Below are positions 11,401-19,428 of a stretch of 64,000 nt of DNA, one piece after another. How positions within the stretch are numbered: the first letter of the stretch is position 1; the number at the start of each line of letters is the position of its first letter. A model generated the notes under the pieces. The model saw only the letters and a list, made by a program, of their open reading frames with translations, was not told the DNA's origin and ran no database searches. The translations under genes and the position numbers were made by a program. Source of the DNA: Candidatus Thorarchaeota archaeon (GTDB lineage Archaea > Asgardarchaeota > Thorarchaeia > Thorarchaeales > Thorarchaeaceae); NCBI GenBank assembly GCA_048882045.1, contig JBHLRZ010000001.1:160001-224000 (forward strand). The letters run 5' to 3'.

Positions 11401-11739
11401 ATGTCAATGGCTCGAAAACCAATCACACCGAAACCTCCTCGTGTTAGAGAGAAGGTGCTAGTTATTCTCCAAGAACAGTGTAAGCAGTGCATGCTCTGTG
11501 TTGAATTCTGTCCGAAGAACGTGCTGTGTCTTACAGACATCTACAATCGTAAAGGATACCATCCTGTCACTGCTTGTGACATTGATGCATGTGTCAACTG
11601 TGAGTTTTGCGAACGAATCTGTCCCGATATGGCAATCTTCCTAGCTGACCGTGAAGAGGCGAAGAAGGCGTATAAGACAGGAGCTGTCGCTGAGGGAACT
11701 GTGATCCCTGAGTTTGATGCTGAGAAGGAGGAGTCCTGA
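11401..11739 (+). CDS. korD: 2-oxoacid:ferredoxin oxidoreductase delta subunit (2x[4Fe-4S])
   Basis: CKQCMLCVEFCP and CVNCEFCERICPDMAI, NRKGYHP; precedes the alpha subunit. Confidence 0.85.
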   Translation: MSMARKPITPKPPRVREKVLVILQEQCKQCMLCVEFCPKNVLCLTDIYNRKGYHPVTACDIDACVNCEFCERICPDMAIFLADREEAKKAYKTGAVAEGTVIPEFDAEKEES

Positions 11740-11742
11740 TAG

Positions 11743-12879
11743 ATGCCTGAGCGGGTCATGTTCACAATGGGAGACATTGCATGTGCAGAAGGTGCCCTCA
11801 GTGCAGGCTGCAGATATTTTGGAGGCTATCCTATCACTCCAGCTACAGAGATTGCAGAGTGGATGTCTCTTCGGATGCCAGAGCTTGGTGGAGCATATGT
11901 CCAATACGAGGATGAAATTGCATCCATCACGAGTGTGATCGGAGCGTCATGGACTGGTGTGAAGTCGATGACAGCAACTTCGGGTCCTGGTGTGAGCCTT
12001 ATGTTGGAAGCTATAGGACTTGCTGTGATGACAGAAACTCCACTTGTCTTGGTAAACATCATGAGAGGTGGACCAAGTACAGGACAACCAACGAAAGGGC
12101 AACAGGGGGATGTCATGCAGGCAAAGTGGGGAAGCCATGGAGACTACCAAATAATCGCATTGACACCAGCTTCTGTTCAAGAAATGTTTGATCAGACAGT
12201 ACAAGCATTCAATCTATCTGAGAAGTACAGAACACCAGTGTTTGTTCTTGCAGATGAAACAGTTGGACATATGAGAGAGAGACTGGTCATCCCTGATGAG
12301 AAGAATCTCAAGCTTGAGTATCGAAAAACTCCTTCAGGTCCTCCTGAGGACTATCTACCCTTCAAAGCAGATGATGATCTTGTTCCACCGATGGCGTTGT
12401 TCGGGTCCAAGTATCAGTTCTATGCAACTGGACTGACTCATGATGAGCGTGGATATCCCAGTGATAAGGAGAACGTTCAGATCGAGCTCATAACGAGACT
12501 CAATAATAAGATACTACACAATGCTGACAAAATTATAGACGTGGAGAGATTCATGCTAGATGATGCTAAGATTGGCGTCGTTTCATATGGAACTCCATCA
12601 AGGAGCGCAAAGAAAGCAATTAAGGAAGCAAGAGCCGAGGGGATCAAAGCTGGAATGCTTCGTTTGAAGACCGTCTGGCCATTCCCTGAGAAACAGATTG
12701 CCAAACTTGCTTCGGAAGTTGATCACATCATTGTGGCGGAGCAAAATCTAGGGCAAGTCTATCACATGGTAAAGGGTGAGGCTGCACCGACACCAGTTCA
12801 TCTCATGGTTAAACCAGCAGGAATGCCACAATTACCAAACGAGATACTAGATAAAATCAAGGAAGTGAATGTATCCTAG
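11743..12879 (+). CDS. korA: 2-oxoacid:ferredoxin oxidoreductase alpha subunit
   Basis: GYPITPATE, QYEDEIAS, TATSGPG, RGGPSTGQPT. Confidence 0.93.
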   Translation: MPERVMFTMGDIACAEGALSAGCRYFGGYPITPATEIAEWMSLRMPELGGAYVQYEDEIASITSVIGASWTGVKSMTATSGPGVSLMLEAIGLAVMTETPLVLVNIMRGGPSTGQPTKGQQGDVMQAKWGSHGDYQIIALTPASVQEMFDQTVQAFNLSEKYRTPVFVLADETVGHMRERLVIPDEKNLKLEYRKTPSGPPEDYLPFKADDDLVPPMALFGSKYQFYATGLTHDERGYPSDKENVQIELITRLNNKILHNADKIIDVERFMLDDAKIGVVSYGTPSRSAKKAIKEARAEGIKAGMLRLKTVWPFPEKQIAKLASEVDHIIVAEQNLGQVYHMVKGEAAPTPVHLMVKPAGMPQLPNEILDKIKEVNVS

Positions 12880-12929
12880 CTGCTCCAAAAGTATACTGCA
12901 GCATCTCCATACTACACTGCTTGATTCGG

Positions 12930-13445
12930 TTAGACAAAAGATTCGCAGATTCTTGCAGATATTAGCTCGAATGCTTTGTTCACATTCTTATCAAGTAAAA
13001 CTGAAACTTCGATGTAGTCCATTCCCAGTTTCGCAGCCATTTCTTTGCCTTCAACCGTTGAAATGACCCTCTCGTCGACAAGGTCTACTTTGTTTGCTAC
13101 AAGAAGTGATAGATACTCATCTACATGCCGATCCACTTCATTCTTCCAGTCGTTCACAGCGTTTAATGACTCCCAAGATGTAACATCATACATGAAGATG
13201 ACACCCTGTGTTCCGATGTAGTAGTTAGCTCGAACCCGTTCAAGGAAGTCCTGAGAGCCAAGGTCCCAGATTTGAGCATTAACAAAATTGTTTCCCAGCT
13301 TCATTTTTTTGTAGGCAAATCCGGTTCCAAGTGTGGGGGAATAGTGCTCGCGAAAAGTTCCAGTGCTATAGCGAATAATGATACTCGTCTTCCCCACTGA
13401 AGCTGCTCCTACTGTACAAATCTTCAGAAGATACGTGGGACTCAT
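12930..13445 (-). CDS. Rab-like small GTPase (Ras superfamily)
   Basis: G1 GAASVGKT, G2 YSPTLG, G3 WDLGSQ, G4 ANKVD, G5 VSVL; YY.G..G...YDVT; no C-terminal prenylation box. Confidence 0.9.
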   Translation of the reverse strand: MSPTYLLKICTVGAASVGKTSIIIRYSTGTFREHYSPTLGTGFAYKKMKLGNNFVNAQIWDLGSQDFLERVRANYYIGTQGVIFMYDVTSWESLNAVNDWKNEVDRHVDEYLSLLVANKVDLVDERVISTVEGKEMAAKLGMDYIEVSVLLDKNVNKAFELISARICESFV

Positions 13446-13520
13446 TATTTATCAGCTCTGTCGGTACTTATTCACTAGTGAGCCATCAGATAACCGTTAC
13501 TTCGATATATGATTGAGGTT

Positions 13521-15101
13521 CTAAACACTTATCCTCTTTGGGAGGGGTAATCTACGTTGTCGTGTTAGAATCAATAGAGTAAATCTGGCAGCATTTCCAA
13601 GCTTTGAATACTCGATCAAAAACTTCTCTTGATTTTCCTCCTTCTGCCAGCCCACCCAGAAGTCAGGTGGAATGTCCATCAGTGGGACCCCAGATGCCTG
13701 GCAAATCCTTGTCATACGCTCTGTACCATAGATCCCTTGACCTCTTGTCACCAATGTGTAGATTACTTCATCCAGAGGATCATCACCTGTTGGTTTGAGA
13801 GAACCAGTCTTGATTCTTCGAACTGGTGATGACCTTTGTGAAGTCAACTGTTCAAGCCACAGTGGGAACTCTTCAAACCCTCTCAGGTCAAATGGTGAAA
13901 AGCGAGTTAGTATCCGTTCAGAAAACGCTTCAGTAAGTCTAACAATGAACTGGTCGAGTTTGTTTGGTTCTAATAATGCGGCAAACTGAGCAAGAAGCTT
14001 CATCCATTCACCATAAAGCAACATGAGCCTCCGATTGTTAAGACCTTCAAGCATTTTGAAGTCAAAATCAACCGACCACACATGGTTGGTCACACGTAAT
14101 TGCCCAAGAGTTTCAGGAGTATCACTACGACTCATGACTGATGTTAGAGCTGTTGTTGCTTCACCTGTGTTGCAACAATCCTCAGCGACACGAAGCGATA
14201 TCTCAAGGACTTCCTTCGCAAGTAGAATCCTTCTCTTCTCTGGAGATAGCGCTTCGATGACTTCCCTCTCAAGTAGAAAGTCCAAGACTCTCAGAATCTC
14301 CCTCTCATCGTACGATTCTCCCAGTTCAATGAGTATCTCACGAACAGTCCTTCGACCCTCTAAGAGGCCCGCAAGGCGGGGAATGACTCCGACCATTTCT
14401 GGATAATGACTGCGCATCGATTCGGTTTCTCTAGATGTCGCTTGAAGATATTTTAGAAATCCTGTTTTGGATGACACAAAGTCATCAAAACTCAGCATGT
14501 TGCGAAATCTGATCACGCGATGTGCCCACATTCGAGATATCTCAAGCAGTAGGTCTCTCTTTGCAAGTCCACTCACATCGAGAATCTCTTTTACATTTCT
14601 GGAGCCGTTGATGAACGGCTCTAATGTTCCACTCGTGTCAACGATAGTATTTGGATCAACTGTGAAGTAGGGTACCCAAGAATCAGGAAGATCTTCAAAG
14701 GAGAGTTTCTCCATGACTCGTTCTCCGAATGGCTCTAGGTAAACATCCGAGAACGATACATCGATACCTAGTAACTCTGTGGCAAGCAGCCATTTCTCCT
14801 CAAACTCAGAGAGGAGCGAGTTCAGAATAGCGACAATCTCTGTGTTGAGACGCTGTACCCCTACTGCAATCATGTGAGTAGCTTCTCCATTAAGAACAGT
14901 GAAGATGTGAGCACCATAGTCTACAGTAAATACTGGTGCACTCTGCTGGAATACCTCTTTTGAAAACATGTCGATTGCAGCGAAGAAGCTGGATGCAAGG
15001 ACCGGGTCCATTCCAAAGGCTCGTGGGTCGAGTTGCATATAGAAACGTGGATTGCCATTTTTATCAGTGATGAGAATGGCTTCGATACTGTGTCCAGTCA
15101 T
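13521..15101 (-). CDS. Longin-like N-terminal domain + two winged-helix modules + helical C-terminus (NPRL2-like architecture); putative GTPase regulator
   Basis: N-terminus IEAILITDKNGNPRF...DPVLASSFFAAIDMFSKEV is typical of longin-type domains; two wHTH-like units FINGSRNVKEI and LLEGRRTVREI; adjacent to the GTPase. Confidence 0.6.
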   Translation of the reverse strand: MTGHSIEAILITDKNGNPRFYMQLDPRAFGMDPVLASSFFAAIDMFSKEVFQQSAPVFTVDYGAHIFTVLNGEATHMIAVGVQRLNTEIVAILNSLLSEFEEKWLLATELLGIDVSFSDVYLEPFGERVMEKLSFEDLPDSWVPYFTVDPNTIVDTSGTLEPFINGSRNVKEILDVSGLAKRDLLLEISRMWAHRVIRFRNMLSFDDFVSSKTGFLKYLQATSRETESMRSHYPEMVGVIPRLAGLLEGRRTVREILIELGESYDEREILRVLDFLLEREVIEALSPEKRRILLAKEVLEISLRVAEDCCNTGEATTALTSVMSRSDTPETLGQLRVTNHVWSVDFDFKMLEGLNNRRLMLLYGEWMKLLAQFAALLEPNKLDQFIVRLTEAFSERILTRFSPFDLRGFEEFPLWLEQLTSQRSSPVRRIKTGSLKPTGDDPLDEVIYTLVTRGQGIYGTERMTRICQASGVPLMDIPPDFWVGWQKEENQEKFLIEYSKLGNAARFTLLILTRQRRLPLPKRISV

Positions 15102-15215
15102 AGATACTCGCCATTTTCAAGGCGGGTAGAATGAATATTAGCATTCTTCGGAGAGAATGACACGATGTCAGGTGCATTGAGTAAGAGTTAAGAAACAGCC
15201 AATTCGCAAGAATTC

Positions 15216-16196
15216 ATGAAAATTCTTCTTACTGGAGCCTTTGGCAACGTAGGTGAGAGCACACTACTTGCCTTGTTCAAAAAGGACTATGATATTAGAT
15301 GTTTTGATCTCAAGACTGAGAGAAATGAAAAGATTCAGAAGCGTCTTGCCAAGATGGAACAGTTTGACACTGTATGGGGAGACATCCGTAATCAAGCAAC
15401 GGTCGAAACCATCGTTGAAGGAATTGATTGCATCATACACCTAGCTGCAATTATCCCTCCTCTATCAGAGTCTAAACCAGATTTCGCAAGATCAGTAAAC
15501 ATTGAAGGAACCAAACTTTTAGTCAAAACAGCTGAAAAGCAGGAAGTCAAACCAAAATTTGTCTTTGCTAGCTCCGTTTCCCTTTTTGGTCCAACTATGC
15601 ATCTACAACCACCACGAACCATACAAGATCCAGTGAATCCCACAGACACCTACACTGAAACTAAATTTGAATGTGAGAAAACAATCAAATCGTCTAGTAT
15701 TCAATGGACAATACTAAGATTGGCTGCAACCCCTCCTATCGAGATGACGACAGAAATCGACCCCATAGTATTTGAGATGCCCTTGGATCAGCGAATTGAG
15801 TTTGTACACTCAAGAGACGTAGGACAAGCTTTTGCAAATGCTATTGAAGCAGAAACTATTGGGAAGACACTCCTCATTGGAGGCGGACCATCCAGTCAGA
15901 TGGTTCAACGAGAATTTCTAACAAAGCTTTTCGATGGAATGGGAATCGGAATGCTTCCTGATTCTGCTTTCAGAGTTGCCACAAAACCTGAGGAATATTT
16001 CTATACTGACTGGCTTGACACTCGAGAATCACAACAACTGCTGCAGTATCAGTCAAGATCAGTTGAGGATTACATTAAGGAGATGACGTCTCAGCTTGGG
16101 ATGATGAGATATTTGACTAGATTGTTCAAAGGTCTAGCACGGAAACGGATACTCGATGCCTCACCATATTATCAAACTACAAAGCAAGTCGAATAA
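15216..16196 (+). CDS. NAD(P)-dependent epimerase/dehydratase (extended SDR)
   Basis: TGAFGNVG, IIHLAA, FASS, YTETK. Confidence 0.88.
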   Translation: MKILLTGAFGNVGESTLLALFKKDYDIRCFDLKTERNEKIQKRLAKMEQFDTVWGDIRNQATVETIVEGIDCIIHLAAIIPPLSESKPDFARSVNIEGTKLLVKTAEKQEVKPKFVFASSVSLFGPTMHLQPPRTIQDPVNPTDTYTETKFECEKTIKSSSIQWTILRLAATPPIEMTTEIDPIVFEMPLDQRIEFVHSRDVGQAFANAIEAETIGKTLLIGGGPSSQMVQREFLTKLFDGMGIGMLPDSAFRVATKPEEYFYTDWLDTRESQQLLQYQSRSVEDYIKEMTSQLGMMRYLTRLFKGLARKRILDASPYYQTTKQVE

Positions 16197-16376
16197 CTCT
16201 CGATGGAGAGAGTGTCCAAAGTGTATACAATTTCAACTTTGCAATGACACTAGAAGCAATTAGATAAGATTCACAAGCAATAACAAGTAAACACTGTTAA
16301 GAAAACAGGATGCCACACCCACAAATCTTTAATCCACTTTGCCCTAGGCCCGACTCGTGCACAGGAGAGTCTCTCA

Positions 16377-17219
16377 GTGACCGAGTCGACACCCATCTTG
16401 AAGCATCCGATGGCGAAGTACATACGAGAAGATAGGCAACCCTGGATCTACTGTTCTGGTTGTTCTATCGGTGTAGTTACAAGTATGATTGCCAGGGCAA
16501 TCGACAACTTAGGTCTAGACTTCAACAAGATAGTCGTGGTTTCAGGAATCGGATGCACTGGTCGTACATCTGGTTACTTCAAGACTGGAACGTATCACAC
16601 GACTCATGGGAGAGCAATTGCTTTTGCTGAGGGTGTCAAGATTGCTAATCCCGACCTAGAGGTCATTGTTGTCAGCGGTGATGGCGACCTCGCAGCCATC
16701 GGAGGAAACCACCTCATTCACGCCTGTCGAAGGAACATAGACATGACGGTCGTTTGCGTGAACAACTTCAATTATGGAATGACAGGTGGCCAATTCGGAC
16801 CAACGACCGAACATGAGAGGTACTCTCAAACCAGCCCGAGACCCATTGGAAACATAGAACACCCCTTCAACCTAGTGAAATTGGCTGCGTCATCTGGAGC
16901 GACCTTTGTAGCCAGATGGACTGCAGTACAGGCAAGAAGAGCGACCAAGTCGATTGAGAAGGGCATCCAGAAAGAGGGATTCTCATTTATCGAGATAATT
17001 GGAGCCTGTCCTACAGAGTACGGGAGAATGAACAGATTGGGCGATGGAGTCACTATGCACAAACACCTGCTTGAGGTTGCAGAGATTCAGAATGGTCTTC
17101 CACCGCACGAGGCTGAACTCGATTATGCAACGAGAATTGTCTGTGGGGAGTTTTTGAACATCGAGAAACCAGAATATACAGCTGTCCTCCGTGAGATGCA
17201 GAAGAAGCTCAAGGAATGA
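16377..17219 (+). CDS. korB: 2-oxoacid:ferredoxin oxidoreductase beta (TPP-binding) subunit
   Basis: YCSGC, SGIGC, HTTHGRA, GDGD...IGGNH...NNFNYGMTGGQ, CPT. Confidence 0.93.
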   Translation: MTESTPILKHPMAKYIREDRQPWIYCSGCSIGVVTSMIARAIDNLGLDFNKIVVVSGIGCTGRTSGYFKTGTYHTTHGRAIAFAEGVKIANPDLEVIVVSGDGDLAAIGGNHLIHACRRNIDMTVVCVNNFNYGMTGGQFGPTTEHERYSQTSPRPIGNIEHPFNLVKLAASSGATFVARWTAVQARRATKSIEKGIQKEGFSFIEIIGACPTEYGRMNRLGDGVTMHKHLLEVAEIQNGLPPHEAELDYATRIVCGEFLNIEKPEYTAVLREMQKKLKE

Positions 17220-17782
17220 TTCTGATGACACGCTATGAAATCCGATTTGGTGGTTTTGGAGGACAAGGAATAGTCACCATGGCAGTCGTTCTTGGAGAAG
17301 CAGTTTCACTTGTTGAGAAGAAAGAGTGTGTACAGACGCAGAGTTACGGACCAGAGGCGAGGGGTGGAGCCACCAAAAGCGAGCTGGTTATTGATGACGA
17401 AGAAGTAGACTATCCTAAGGTACAGGAACCCGATGTGTTCGTTGCCATGAGTCGAGCTGCATACTTGGAATACATTGATGGACTCAAGGAAGACGGAATT
17501 CTCATTATCGATGAGGACTTGGTGGAGATCGAAAGCGATCTGCCTGATGGAATCAAGATCTACAAGATTCCAGCGACAAGAATCGCAGACGTTGACATAG
17601 GAACGAAACAAGCTACGAATGTTGTGATGTTAGGAGCTCTGACGGCAATTACTGGAATAGTCACACTTGAAGGCCTCAAACAGCAGATAATTGACCGCTG
17701 GCCAAGGTTCAAGGAAACCAACCTGAAAGCGCTGGAGCTGGGTGTGAAGGCTGGTAAAGAGGCTGTTCCATTCAGTAAATAG
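17216..17782 (+). CDS. korC: 2-oxoacid:ferredoxin oxidoreductase gamma subunit (start possibly 17225)
   Basis: GGFGGQGI, QSYGPEARGG, NVVMLGAL. Confidence 0.92.
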   Translation: MILMTRYEIRFGGFGGQGIVTMAVVLGEAVSLVEKKECVQTQSYGPEARGGATKSELVIDDEEVDYPKVQEPDVFVAMSRAAYLEYIDGLKEDGILIIDEDLVEIESDLPDGIKIYKIPATRIADVDIGTKQATNVVMLGALTAITGIVTLEGLKQQIIDRWPRFKETNLKALELGVKAGKEAVPFSK

Positions 17783-17817: not shown

Positions 17818-18291
17818 TTGATTATGAGTTCTAAAAATCCACTAGAAGATTGGTACTTTCTCATTGGCGAATGGGAAGGCGGGTCGACTGATCAGTTTGA
17901 TGAAGAAGGGACAATCAAGACATCTGAGGTATACACTCTGGAGTTGAATGGGGTCTATATCATGGGTAGACACGATGCTTTCAACAAAGATGGAAACCTC
18001 ATTCACAAAGCCCTCAGCATGCTCTACTATGATAGACATAACAAGATAATGCTGCGGAAGACATTCTACTCATACGGCTTCACGAACAACGAGGTGGAGC
18101 TTGAGAGAACTGATGACATGATTCGTTTTGAGGTCGTTCAAGAGCCTATACCTCAAGCCTTTGATGGGATGAAGTGGAGATCCTATATCAAGAAAGTTTC
18201 AGAAACTGAGATTCGTGATGGATTAGAAGTTTGCAAACCAGGAGAAGATTTCTCCAGCTATGGAGAGTCCGTTTCAAAGAAAATTAAATGA
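17818..18291 (+). CDS. Hypothetical beta-barrel (DUF1579/nitrobindin-like) protein
   Basis: L..LIGEWEG N-terminal motif typical of calycin-like barrels. Confidence 0.5.
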   Translation: MIMSSKNPLEDWYFLIGEWEGGSTDQFDEEGTIKTSEVYTLELNGVYIMGRHDAFNKDGNLIHKALSMLYYDRHNKIMLRKTFYSYGFTNNEVELERTDDMIRFEVVQEPIPQAFDGMKWRSYIKKVSETEIRDGLEVCKPGEDFSSYGESVSKKIK

Positions 18292-18292
18292 T

Positions 18293-18646
18293 TCATTTCT
18301 TCTTCTTAGGTTCCTTAGGAGGAAGAGTAGTGACATATGATATCGATTTCTTGATCAGCAACTTCAGTCTTGGTGATTCATCTAGCACCGAATCATTAAG
18401 CACAATATACTCACTCATGACCTTACCTTTCAGTGGTTCAAAGACAGTGATGTTATCCTGAGCCAGTGCTTCTTCACGGTCATCTGCAGAAAGCCTCAAG
18501 AAAAGGTCTGATCGATGAGTTCCGGTGAACATGTTCTTGTTTATGAAGAAAGCAACACCTCCGAACATCTTCTTCTCTGTATAATCTACATCCTTCAAAT
18601 GCGACTTTATGAGCCCATGTAGTTCTTCTTTTGATCGCTCGGTCAT
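18293..18646 (-). CDS. TfoX/Sxy N-terminal domain protein
   Basis: EKKMFGGVAFFINKNMF...LFLRL...M.EYI. Confidence 0.8.
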   Translation of the reverse strand: MTERSKEELHGLIKSHLKDVDYTEKKMFGGVAFFINKNMFTGTHRSDLFLRLSADDREEALAQDNITVFEPLKGKVMSEYIVLNDSVLDESPRLKLLIKKSISYVTTLPPKEPKKKK

Positions 18647-19428
18647 TAGTTGATTTCCTTCTCATCAAGAGCTAATACTGCAGCACCTAATGCCCCGGTG
18701 AGTTGTGGCTCCTGGGGAACCCAGAGTTCCACACCTAATTGTTTGGAAAGGTGATATCTGAATGCAGGGTTGAGAGCTACTCCGCCAGTCACACATACAG
18801 GCTCTTTGACACCAACTCGTTTCGAAAGCGCAGTAATCTTTGAAACCATGGATACGTGAACCCCTGCTGCAATGTCTGCAGCTGACTCTCCAGCGCCAAT
18901 GTGACCAATGACCTCGCTTTCCGCAAAGACGGTGCAAGTGCTACTTATCGAACTTGGGTTCTTTGATTTCAGTGCAAGAGGACCTAGTTCGTCTAAAGAT
19001 ACCTCAAGAACTCTTGCCATAACCTCAAGAAATCGACCAGTTCCAGCAGAACACTTGTCATTCAACTCAAAATCCTCAGGTCTTCCAGAGGGACCAACGC
19101 GAATGGCCTTGGCGTCTTGCCCTCCAACATCGATGAGCAATCGAATGTCTGGATTGATGTGATGTACTCCAACGCTATGGCAAGTAATCTCAGTGACTGA
19201 TTTTTCAGCCAGCTCAACGCGTGCTCGACCGTACCCTGTACTAATCACCGGGATTCCATTCAGATCTATGTTCGATGTTGAAGATATATTCCGTATCGTC
19301 TTTTCCACTGACTGGACAGCAGACGCTCCGGTTAGCATCAGTGATTTAGCCACAATCTCACCTGAGCTATCTAGCAGGACTCCCTTTGTTGTTGTAGATC
19401 CAACATCAATTCCAACACCGAAAGCCAC
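18646..19428 (-). CDS. CoA-substrate-specific enzyme activase (HgdC/BadG ASKHA ATPase, [4Fe-4S])
   Basis: GIDVGSTTTK, TGYGR, TEITCH, DVGGQDAK, NDKCSAGTGRFLE, SSTCTVFAESE. Confidence 0.93.
   Translation of the reverse strand: MAFGVGIDVGSTTTKGVLLDSSGEIVAKSLMLTGASAVQSVEKTIRNISSTSNIDLNGIPVISTGYGRARVELAEKSVTEITCHSVGVHHINPDIRLLIDVGGQDAKAIRVGPSGRPEDFELNDKCSAGTGRFLEVMARVLEVSLDELGPLALKSKNPSSISSTCTVFAESEVIGHIGAGESAADIAAGVHVSMVSKITALSKRVGVKEPVCVTGGVALNPAFRYHLSKQLGVELWVPQEPQLTGALGAAVLALDEKEIN

Follow-up and report, generated by a model that had tools for sequence, protein, structure and literature searches.

A distant NPRL2/NPRL3 homolog encoded directly upstream of a Rab-like GTPase gene in a Thorarchaeota genome

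A stretch of 64,000 nucleotides (nt) from a Thorarchaeota genome (assembly GCA_048882045.1, contig JBHLRZ010000001.1, positions 160,001 to 224,000), referred to here as the window, encodes a relative of NPRL2 and NPRL3, subunits that act in eukaryotic nutrient signalling, directly upstream of a gene for a Rab-like GTPase. The assembly of this Asgard archaeon comprises 3.6 Mb in 93 contigs and is 93% complete, and the source names of homologs assign the genome to Thorarchaeota. The two genes, their spacer and the domains of the larger product occupy the following window positions:

13521-15101, minus strand: large open reading frame (ORF) of 526 amino acids (aa), taken from the ORF listing and its translation
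14697-15101, minus strand: longin domain, residues 1-135, with a G-x-P motif (G16-N17-P18) before strand 2 and a DYGAH loop (His65)
14244-14696, minus strand: WVPYF strand and two tandem winged-helix units, residues 136-286, the NPRL2/NPRL3-specific part
13827-14243, minus strand: family-specific helical domain, residues 287-425, with the motifs EKRRILL, GEWMKLLAQF and DLRGFEEFxxWLE; predicted GTPase-binding surface
13524-13826, minus strand: linker and four-helix C-terminal domain, residues 426-526, fused here but encoded on its own (about 100-120 aa) in paralogs and distant relatives
13446-13520, minus strand: intergenic spacer of 75 nt, read directly from the sequence
12930-13445, minus strand: small ORF of 171 aa, the Rab-like GTPase, 75 nt downstream of the 526-aa gene, taken from the ORF listing and its translation

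The original prediction for this locus had named two adjacent, co-oriented ORFs and quoted several strings from the larger one. Both ORFs, their orientation and adjacency, and every quoted string are present in the ORF listing and translations; the 526-aa translation contains VPYF (residues 143-146), LEPFINGSRNVKEI, MWAHRVIRFRNMLSFDDFV, LEGRRTVREIL and DEREILRVLDFLLEREVIEAL. The spacer lies between genes of the same orientation and holds the AT-rich sequence CATATAT some 60 nt upstream of the ATG of the GTPase gene, and an oligo-T run looked for in its 75 nt was not found. The 526-aa protein has approximately 150 homologs at E≤1e-3, and given these the ORF is a real, conserved gene.

NPRL2 and NPRL3 form the longin core of GATOR1/SEACIT, a GTPase-activating protein (GAP) for RagA/Gtr1 in which Arg78 of NPRL2 is the finger in the longin loop. 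Relating the archaeal protein to them required profiles because single-sequence searches were uninformative: nothing significant was returned, the sole Pfam match being MAPKK1_Int (E 0.22), and among PDB sequences only homocitrate synthase and uL29m came up, at E 0.05-0.08. Two profiles, A1 with 24 relatives and A3 with 30 core sequences of identity as low as 13%, were searched against a PDB set of 177,635 sequences. NPRL2 was the sole match of A1 (E 0.0018). With A3 (hmmsearch), NPRL2 was found at E 2e-7 and the next match was a MarR protein at E 0.1; positions 117-283 of the profile align with NPRL2 151-328, spanning both winged helices. The PDB entries that contain NPRL2 according to the profile search are 8fw5_B, 6ces/7t3a/9v0j/9o5a. 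VPxF, (L)PYIDG.R.I..I, a Y/W-G-V-I hairpin, TV..I and the final helix follow one another in the HMMER line-up, which reproduces the motif-by-motif correspondence with NPRL2 that had been proposed.

The structural searches led to the same family. An AlphaFold2 (AF2) model of the whole 526-aa protein has a predicted local distance difference test (pLDDT) of 81.6 and a predicted TM-score (pTM) of 0.77, and its best 13 PDB matches in Foldseek are all chains of GATOR1, KICSTOR-GATOR1 or yeast SEAC (E 2e-6 to 1.5e-3, 340-490 aligned columns); single-domain longin and roadblock matches rank below. Judged by chain length, the matched chains of 360-370 residues would be NPRL2 and those of 400-460 residues NPRL3. 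Since longin domains are common, and a full-length search with VIA reported the longin domain only, residues 136-425 were modelled separately (pLDDT 91.8, pTM 0.83). The best 14 Foldseek matches of this model are again all GATOR1/SEAC chains (E 1.7e-4 to 0.09), with 16-17% identity for the NPRL2-type chains, and below rank 14 come FadR and others at E ~0.5 and probability <0.1. An exhaustive VIA search, which is independent of Foldseek, placed 8fw5_C first (Z 9.2, root mean square deviation (rmsd) 3.9, 147 aligned) and 8adl_S second (Z 9.1, rmsd 3.6, 148 aligned, 16% identity), both covering residues 1-152 of the 136-425 model. The top rows of an ESM Atlas search with this model are eukaryotic NPR2/NPR3 clusters. 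Profile, Foldseek, VIA and Atlas searches thus agree that the longin domain, VPYF and the two winged helices are specifically NPRL2/NPRL3-like, as the original prediction had held, and the top Foldseek matches are GATOR1/SEAC chains only, not unrelated folds.

By the Pfam criterion the 526-aa protein is not a member of the NPRL2 or NPRL3 families; it is a distant homolog. The NPR2 and NPR3 models match none of 30 family members, and PF06218 has no match anywhere in the genome at E≤10. The HTH_NPRL3 model matches 4 of the 30 members (best 2.4e-4) and scores 13.7 bits on the paralogous core protein described below, under the cut-off of 27.2.

Another way to read the winged helices starts from the VIA ranking, where matches to a single winged helix come next. 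The second winged helix alone resembles the recognition elements (RREs) of ribosomally synthesized and post-translationally modified peptides (8t19_A: Z 8.1, rmsd 3.2, 77 aligned), PqqD is found weakly in 3 of 30 members, and MarR appears at E 0.1 as noted above. The two genes would then be mere neighbours, and the 526-aa protein a winged-helix DNA-binding regulator or an RRE/PqqD-like peptide-binding one. Against this, the two-unit whole matches only NPRL2/NPRL3, and for that whole the PqqD/RRE or MarR reading of the winged helices was rejected.

Bacterial PatA_N (PATAN, PF14332) clusters were also returned by the ESM Atlas shape search with the residues 136-425 model (13827-14696). A PatA_N cluster combined with PadR reached TM 0.50 over model residues 30-281, and another PatA_N cluster TM 0.41; Pfam scans of 30 family members found no PatA_N. 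The second winged helix and the helical domain may have a distant structural relationship to PATAN domains.

The N-terminal domain has the secondary structure b-b-a-b-b-b-a in the AF2 model, which is the longin order. Its residues 4-136 match the longins of Sec22b, adaptin sigma/mu and TRAPP (VIA Z 10-12.3, rmsd 2.6-4.0, 112-125 aligned), and MglB is also among its fold matches. The helical domain is modelled at pLDDT >90, and VIA found no strong fold match for residues 287-425 (Z≤6). For the C-terminal domain a Pfam scan gave no match, and an ESM Atlas feature search with residues 436-526 gave low scores (0.75-0.77) to unnamed clusters only. The pair had been described as a "minimal" module. 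The pairing with a GTPase stands; minimality does not, as the protein carries an extra helical domain of 140 aa and a fused C-terminal domain of 90 aa, the latter a separate gene in paralogs and distant relatives.

Linkage of the two genes is conserved. A GTPase gene lies directly downstream in 27 of 29 ortholog loci from other genomes (57-91% identity), and the other 2 end at a contig edge; the GTPase therefore follows in every ortholog locus with enough sequence, which bears out the conserved pairing that had been suggested. The same pairing is found with P0067, at 52% identity, among mostly different neighbours, with an epimerase-family gene adjoining downstream of the GTPase. The genome of the window also contains a second, paralogous version of this module on another contig, in a split form:

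Contig C21:20619-22781 (locus L004:6617-8782): three-gene module of a 422-aa core, a 111-aa gene and a 169-aa GTPase

The 111-aa gene corresponds to residues 438-524 of the fused protein and overlaps the core gene by 4 nt. The split three-gene form (core, small gene, GTPase) is also present in L008, L056, L061 and L062, and the C-terminal domain is a separate gene also in L008, L062 and L042-L045. By analogy with NPRL2 and NPRL3, the fused protein and the C21 core might form a heterodimer.

At one locus (L005:5724-6521, on contig C121 of genome G337) the fused NPRL2-like gene and the module GTPase are separated by a 265-aa gene, whose match to the core is limited to residues 250-423 (second winged helix and helical domain). 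A second, canonical Arf/Ras-type GTPase is encoded upstream at this locus.

The 171-aa protein is a Ras-superfamily GTPase (Pfam Ras, 4e-41). Its best 60 PDB sequences are all Rab, Ypt or Sec4 (E 3e-33 to 7e-25); Rab1A, Rab3A and Ypt1 are the top solved relatives (E ~1e-33), and a "Thorarchaeota Rab", 7ezb, is among the matches. The motifs read GAASVGKT (G1), T38 in switch I, WDLGSQ (G3), NKVD (G4) and SV (G5). G1 GxxxxGKT, Thr38, the catalytic Gln65 and NKxD are canonical, and the deviations, DxGSQ in place of DxxGQ at G3 and SV in place of SA at G5, are both invariant in the module clade, with G63, S64 and Q65 invariant across 16 module GTPases. No prenylation motif (CC, CxC or CaaX) is found at the C-terminus, which ends ...RICESFV; orthologs do not share its lone Cys, which stands five residues from the end. 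Relative to Ras, the changes at the A59/G60 and A146 positions suggest slow intrinsic hydrolysis and fast exchange, and by this analogy the module GTPase may behave likewise.

Sequence comparison places the module GTPases in a clade of their own, with the unusual switch II motif WDxGSQ. Among the approximately 20 Ras/Rab-like GTPases of the genome, DxGSQ (WDLGSQ) occurs only in the two that are linked to a module, the C21 169-aa GTPase being the second; the rest have WDxAGQ or WDxGGQ. These two are also each other's closest relatives in the genome (284 bits, against ≤148 for the others). WDLGSQ is likewise found in the module GTPases of L005 and L062, and GTPases that merely flank a core gene are canonical. 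The shared WDLGSQ and the mutual closeness of the two GTPases therefore indicate that the module was duplicated as a unit and that it has a private GTPase clade. The linkage is kept down to 36-57% identity and through this duplication, which argues against the genes being neighbours by chance.

The family is present in 66 of 85 genomes of the GTDB family to which the window belongs and is sporadic in other Asgard families; the "Lokiarchaeota" record GF411 belongs to the same GTDB family as the window. Across this range the most widespread pair is the core with the small protein, and linkage to a GTPase characterises the Thorarchaeial subfamilies. In a third core subfamily (24-33% identity; L009, L012/L046, L049-L054, L059, L060, L063) a Lactamase_B/ODP gene follows the core, and the small C-terminal-domain gene comes after the ODP gene where the locus extends far enough. 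ODP denotes an oxygen-binding di-iron protein, and the gene is of the di-iron sensor type.

Structure prediction returned a direct complex between the two proteins. Both alignments were used with GTP and Mg in three runs, alongside three controls. The 526-aa protein and the GTPase scored 0.78 in the interaction prediction score from aligned errors (ipSAE; runs 0.80, 0.77 and 0.78), and the best of the 3 controls scored 0.00. Among solved complexes 58 of 80 attain this mark, and among mismatched pairs 2 of 110; the calibration is only rough here because own alignments were used and the GTP/Mg ligand was included. The three runs share at least 87% of contacts, with partner pLDDT of at least 88. 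On the side of the 526-aa protein the predicted interface involves residues 288, 291, 360-375, 407-418, 423-438 and 452-456, and on the side of the GTPase the P-loop S16, switch I/strand 2 (27-45), Q58, Q65 and switch II (67-78). The score is unlikely to be recall of a solved structure, because the interface differs from the longin-based GAP mode of GATOR1. Since the predicted complex passes its controls, it too speaks against the two genes being mere neighbours, a reading that we consider highly improbable.

The predicted interface is conserved in the family. Within residues 1-425, 7 of 22 interface residues fall in invariant columns of a 24-sequence alignment, against about 2 by chance (hypergeometric p=0.002). 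GTPase-linked members, among them P0123 with 36% identity, retain intact DLRGFEEFxxWLE and AQF motifs. In ODP-linked members these motifs are degraded, with Arg407 replaced by D/E/N and Gln372 by K/T/L; S and A are also listed among the residues that replace Arg407 or Gln372 there, and Arg407 is replaced in each of the three such members in the alignment. Gln372 is kept in the GTPase-linked subfamilies, and Arg407 only in these; P0124 has Ser at position 407, and its contig ends beside the gene.

As the modelled complex has it, the NPRL2/NPRL3-like protein probably works in a dedicated complex with the downstream GTPase as the GTPase's own regulator, most likely as a GAP. The helices of the helical domain (GEWMKLLAQF and DLRGFEEFxxWLE), the linker and the first helix of the C-terminal domain would clamp the GTP-bound GTPase. 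This clamp would cover switch I, the interswitch strand and switch II and reach the P-loop S16 and the catalytic Gln65; because of these contacts, binding should depend on the nucleotide state. Arg407 or Arg291 would be the candidate catalytic or stabilising residue, and the longin/winged-helix platform could serve for dimerisation and output. A GAP is preferred because the predicted interface reaches the P-loop and Gln65, because conservation of an arginine (407, perhaps 291) coincides exactly with linkage to a GTPase, and because the changes in the GTPase suggest slow intrinsic hydrolysis and fast exchange. The original prediction had spoken of a GTPase with a GAP/GEF switch, where GEF stands for guanine nucleotide exchange factor. 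Such an activity, and the direction of regulation (GAP as opposed to GEF or effector), are inferred.

The same predicted contacts also suit an effector or scaffold, in which the GTP-bound GTPase recruits or switches the NPRL2-like protein with its nucleotide state unchanged and the signal is relayed through the longin/winged-helix platform. Rab effectors usually place helices against switch I, the interswitch strand and switch II, and the predicted helices pack on these elements, including F43 and Y75. An adaptor with varied inputs would also fit the core relatives that pair with an ODP-type di-iron sensor gene instead, and the NPRL2-like longins fused to two-component domains that appear in the text of an Asgard preprint (Liu et al., bioRxiv 10.1101/2020.10.19.343400). 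However, the interface also contacts S16 of the P-loop and Q65, which is more typical of GAPs and GEFs, and Arg407 is conserved only where the GTPase is linked. The effector or scaffold role is a serious rival to the GAP reading, and we judge it unlikely.

A further rival places catalysis on the face of a longin dimer, either as a GATOR1-like GAP or as a longin-platform GEF, with the helical contact serving for docking only or being wrong. Precedents for such dimers are NPRL2-NPRL3 on RagA and TRAPP and Mon1-Ccz1 on Rabs. The longin fold is unambiguous, a heterodimer like NPRL2-NPRL3 could be built from the two paralogs of one genome, and the DYGAR loop carries Arg or Lys in most of the family. 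GATOR1 itself has distinct docking and GAP modes (PMC8534245). Longins of the GAP type carry a "GP" motif before strand 2 (PMC12290439), and a G-x-P motif occupies the equivalent position in the 526-aa protein: G16 is conserved at ≥90% and near-invariant in the family, and the motif is GNP here and GIP or GLP in most relatives. This motif is, however, GxP and not GP, one residue longer; the loop arginine is His65 here; and the GTPase was placed on the longin domain in none of the prediction runs. Catalysis by the longin face thus seems decidedly unlikely.

Several points weigh against the preferred reading as a whole, an NPRL2/NPRL3 homolog that forms a complex with its GTPase and regulates it. 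Family alignments contain no invariant arginine in the longin domain (residues 1-135), and the DYGAR-loop position, which is His65 in the clade of the 526-aa protein, varies across the family and is mostly Arg or Lys. An arginine finger of the GATOR1 longin type is accordingly not supported by the sequences, and the predicted contact is made by the helical domain. Pfam NPR2 (PF06218) and NPR3 (PF03666) have no match in the 526-aa protein at E≤1. No GTPase was seen in the fetched flanks of the ODP-subfamily loci, and four distant Asgard genomes have the small gene immediately before the core but no GTPase with them; a GTPase is thus no obligatory partner of the core fold. The GTPase-linked cases come, with a single exception, from one GTDB family and are not independent observations because they are kin. 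The complex is itself a prediction, and both binding and its geometry rest on the model.

Eukaryotic NPRL2 and NPRL3 (yeast Npr2/Npr3) are the closest known systems. They have the same order of an N-terminal longin domain followed by two winged helices, they provide the best PDB fold matches and the significant similarity to NPRL2 151-328, and they have a small-GTPase partner in common with the archaeal protein, whose own partnership is predicted. The partner of GATOR1 is a Rag heterodimer with roadblock domains, whereas here it would be a single-domain Rab-like GTPase. Unlike NPRL2 and NPRL3, the archaeal protein has an extra helical domain as its predicted binding site and no conserved longin arginine, and Pfam NPR2 is silent on it. 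A search of the 93%-complete genome for DEPDC5/Iml1 (PF12257, IML1) gave no match, a result made uninformative by equally silent control genomes. The Gtr1_RagA model has weak matches of 28-37 bits in open frames of 179-222 aa, and the module GTPases are not among these.

Another two-gene comparison is bacterial MglA-MglB, which likewise joins a prokaryotic Ras-like small GTPase to a regulator of the roadblock/longin superfamily, in that case a roadblock-dimer GAP. MglB is a bare roadblock dimer that sits directly on its GTPase, whereas the archaeal protein is four to five times larger and is predicted to make contact through its helical domain. Among Rab GTPases, including the Thor-Rab (PDB 7ezb; Tran et al. 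2024, PMC10933270), the best matches of the module GTPase are Rab1/Rab3/Ypt1, and its G1, switch I Thr, catalytic Gln and NKxD follow the canonical pattern. It differs from Rabs in having DxGSQ for DxxGQ and SV for SA, and in lacking a prenylation cysteine motif.

In Asgard archaea, an operon of a LAMTOR1-like protein, a Rab-like GTPase and a DENN protein is described in the preprint text (Liu et al., bioRxiv 10.1101/2020.10.19.343400). As presented there, that operon resembles the present pair in being a conserved Asgard cluster of a Rab-like, non-Rag GTPase and a relative of a GTPase regulator from the mTORC1 pathway. The regulator folds differ, DENN/roadblock in one and NPRL2-type longin plus winged helices in the other, and so do the GTPase clades; by the same text the LAMTOR1-like/DENN operon occurs in most Asgard lineages, whereas the NPRL2-like pair is confined essentially to one family.

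NPRL2-like proteins were reported in most Thor metagenome-assembled genomes (Liu et al., bioRxiv 10.1101/2020.10.19.343400, Fig. 5c), and as that source describes the family, the 526-aa protein belongs to it. The protein family is thus published under the name "NPRL2-like", and of the novelty claimed by the original prediction only the pairing and its context can be retained. For this family the text of the preprint gives domain architectures only and contains no conserved operon with a Rab-like GTPase; the helical domain, the fused or split small domain, the WDxGSQ GTPase clade and the predicted interface go beyond that text. The additions made here, a pairing with a distinctive GTPase that is conserved and was duplicated as a unit, and a predicted interface through the helical domain, amount to an incremental advance. 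The preprint is said to have appeared later in Nature, in 2021.

Asgard genomes encode dozens of small GTPases and dozens of longin and roadblock proteins, and it is rarely clear which regulator matches which GTPase. Genome layout is usually no guide to this matching, and in the Lokiarchaeon MK-D1 small GTPase genes as a rule do not share an operon with roadblock or longin genes (Tran et al. 2024, PMC10933270). The NPRL2-like/GTPase pair is an exception for that reason: layout is informative here, as one NPRL2/NPRL3-like protein and one Rab-like GTPase have stayed together through speciation and duplication. The result is a matched couple that can be tested at the bench, with a confident predicted interface and the residues Arg407, Arg291 and Trp415 on one side and Ser64/Gln65 of the GTPase on the other. 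It bears on the question whether regulation of GTPases by NPRL2-type proteins is older than eukaryotes, and on the surface involved.

The two genes lie within an operon for a 2-oxoacid:ferredoxin oxidoreductase (kor; 11401-17782), which is split by the minus-strand GTPase and NPRL2-like genes together with a plus-strand gene of the short-chain dehydrogenase/reductase (SDR)/epimerase type:

11401-12879, plus strand: korD (Fer4) and korA (POR_N), first part of the 2-oxoacid:ferredoxin oxidoreductase operon
15216-16196, plus strand: SDR/epimerase, between the 526-aa gene and korB-korC
16377-17782, plus strand: korB (TPP_enzyme_C) and korC (POR gamma), second part of the operon

The same embedding is found in ortholog loci L013-L032, from two genera, with or without the SDR gene. 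In these orthologs korA lies beyond the GTPase, and korB-korC diverge from the large gene. More distant orthologs lack the kor embedding, which may be inherited synteny or may reflect a functional tie to 2-oxoacid/amino-acid catabolism. The position of the pair between korDA and korBC in two genera hints at wiring to nutrient state. In the most far-reaching version of this idea, the module would be a survivor of pre-eukaryotic nutrient signalling by longin regulators and GTPases, wired to amino-acid/2-oxoacid catabolism, with an arginine of the helical domain replacing the longin finger. We regard this version as very doubtful; if it were true, the link of NPRL2-type proteins to nutrient state would be older than eukaryotes. 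Downstream of korC the window continues with three genes:

17818-18291: ORF of 157 aa with no Pfam match
18293-18646, minus strand: TfoX_N-domain gene
18646-19428, minus strand: BadF/BcrA-type ATPase

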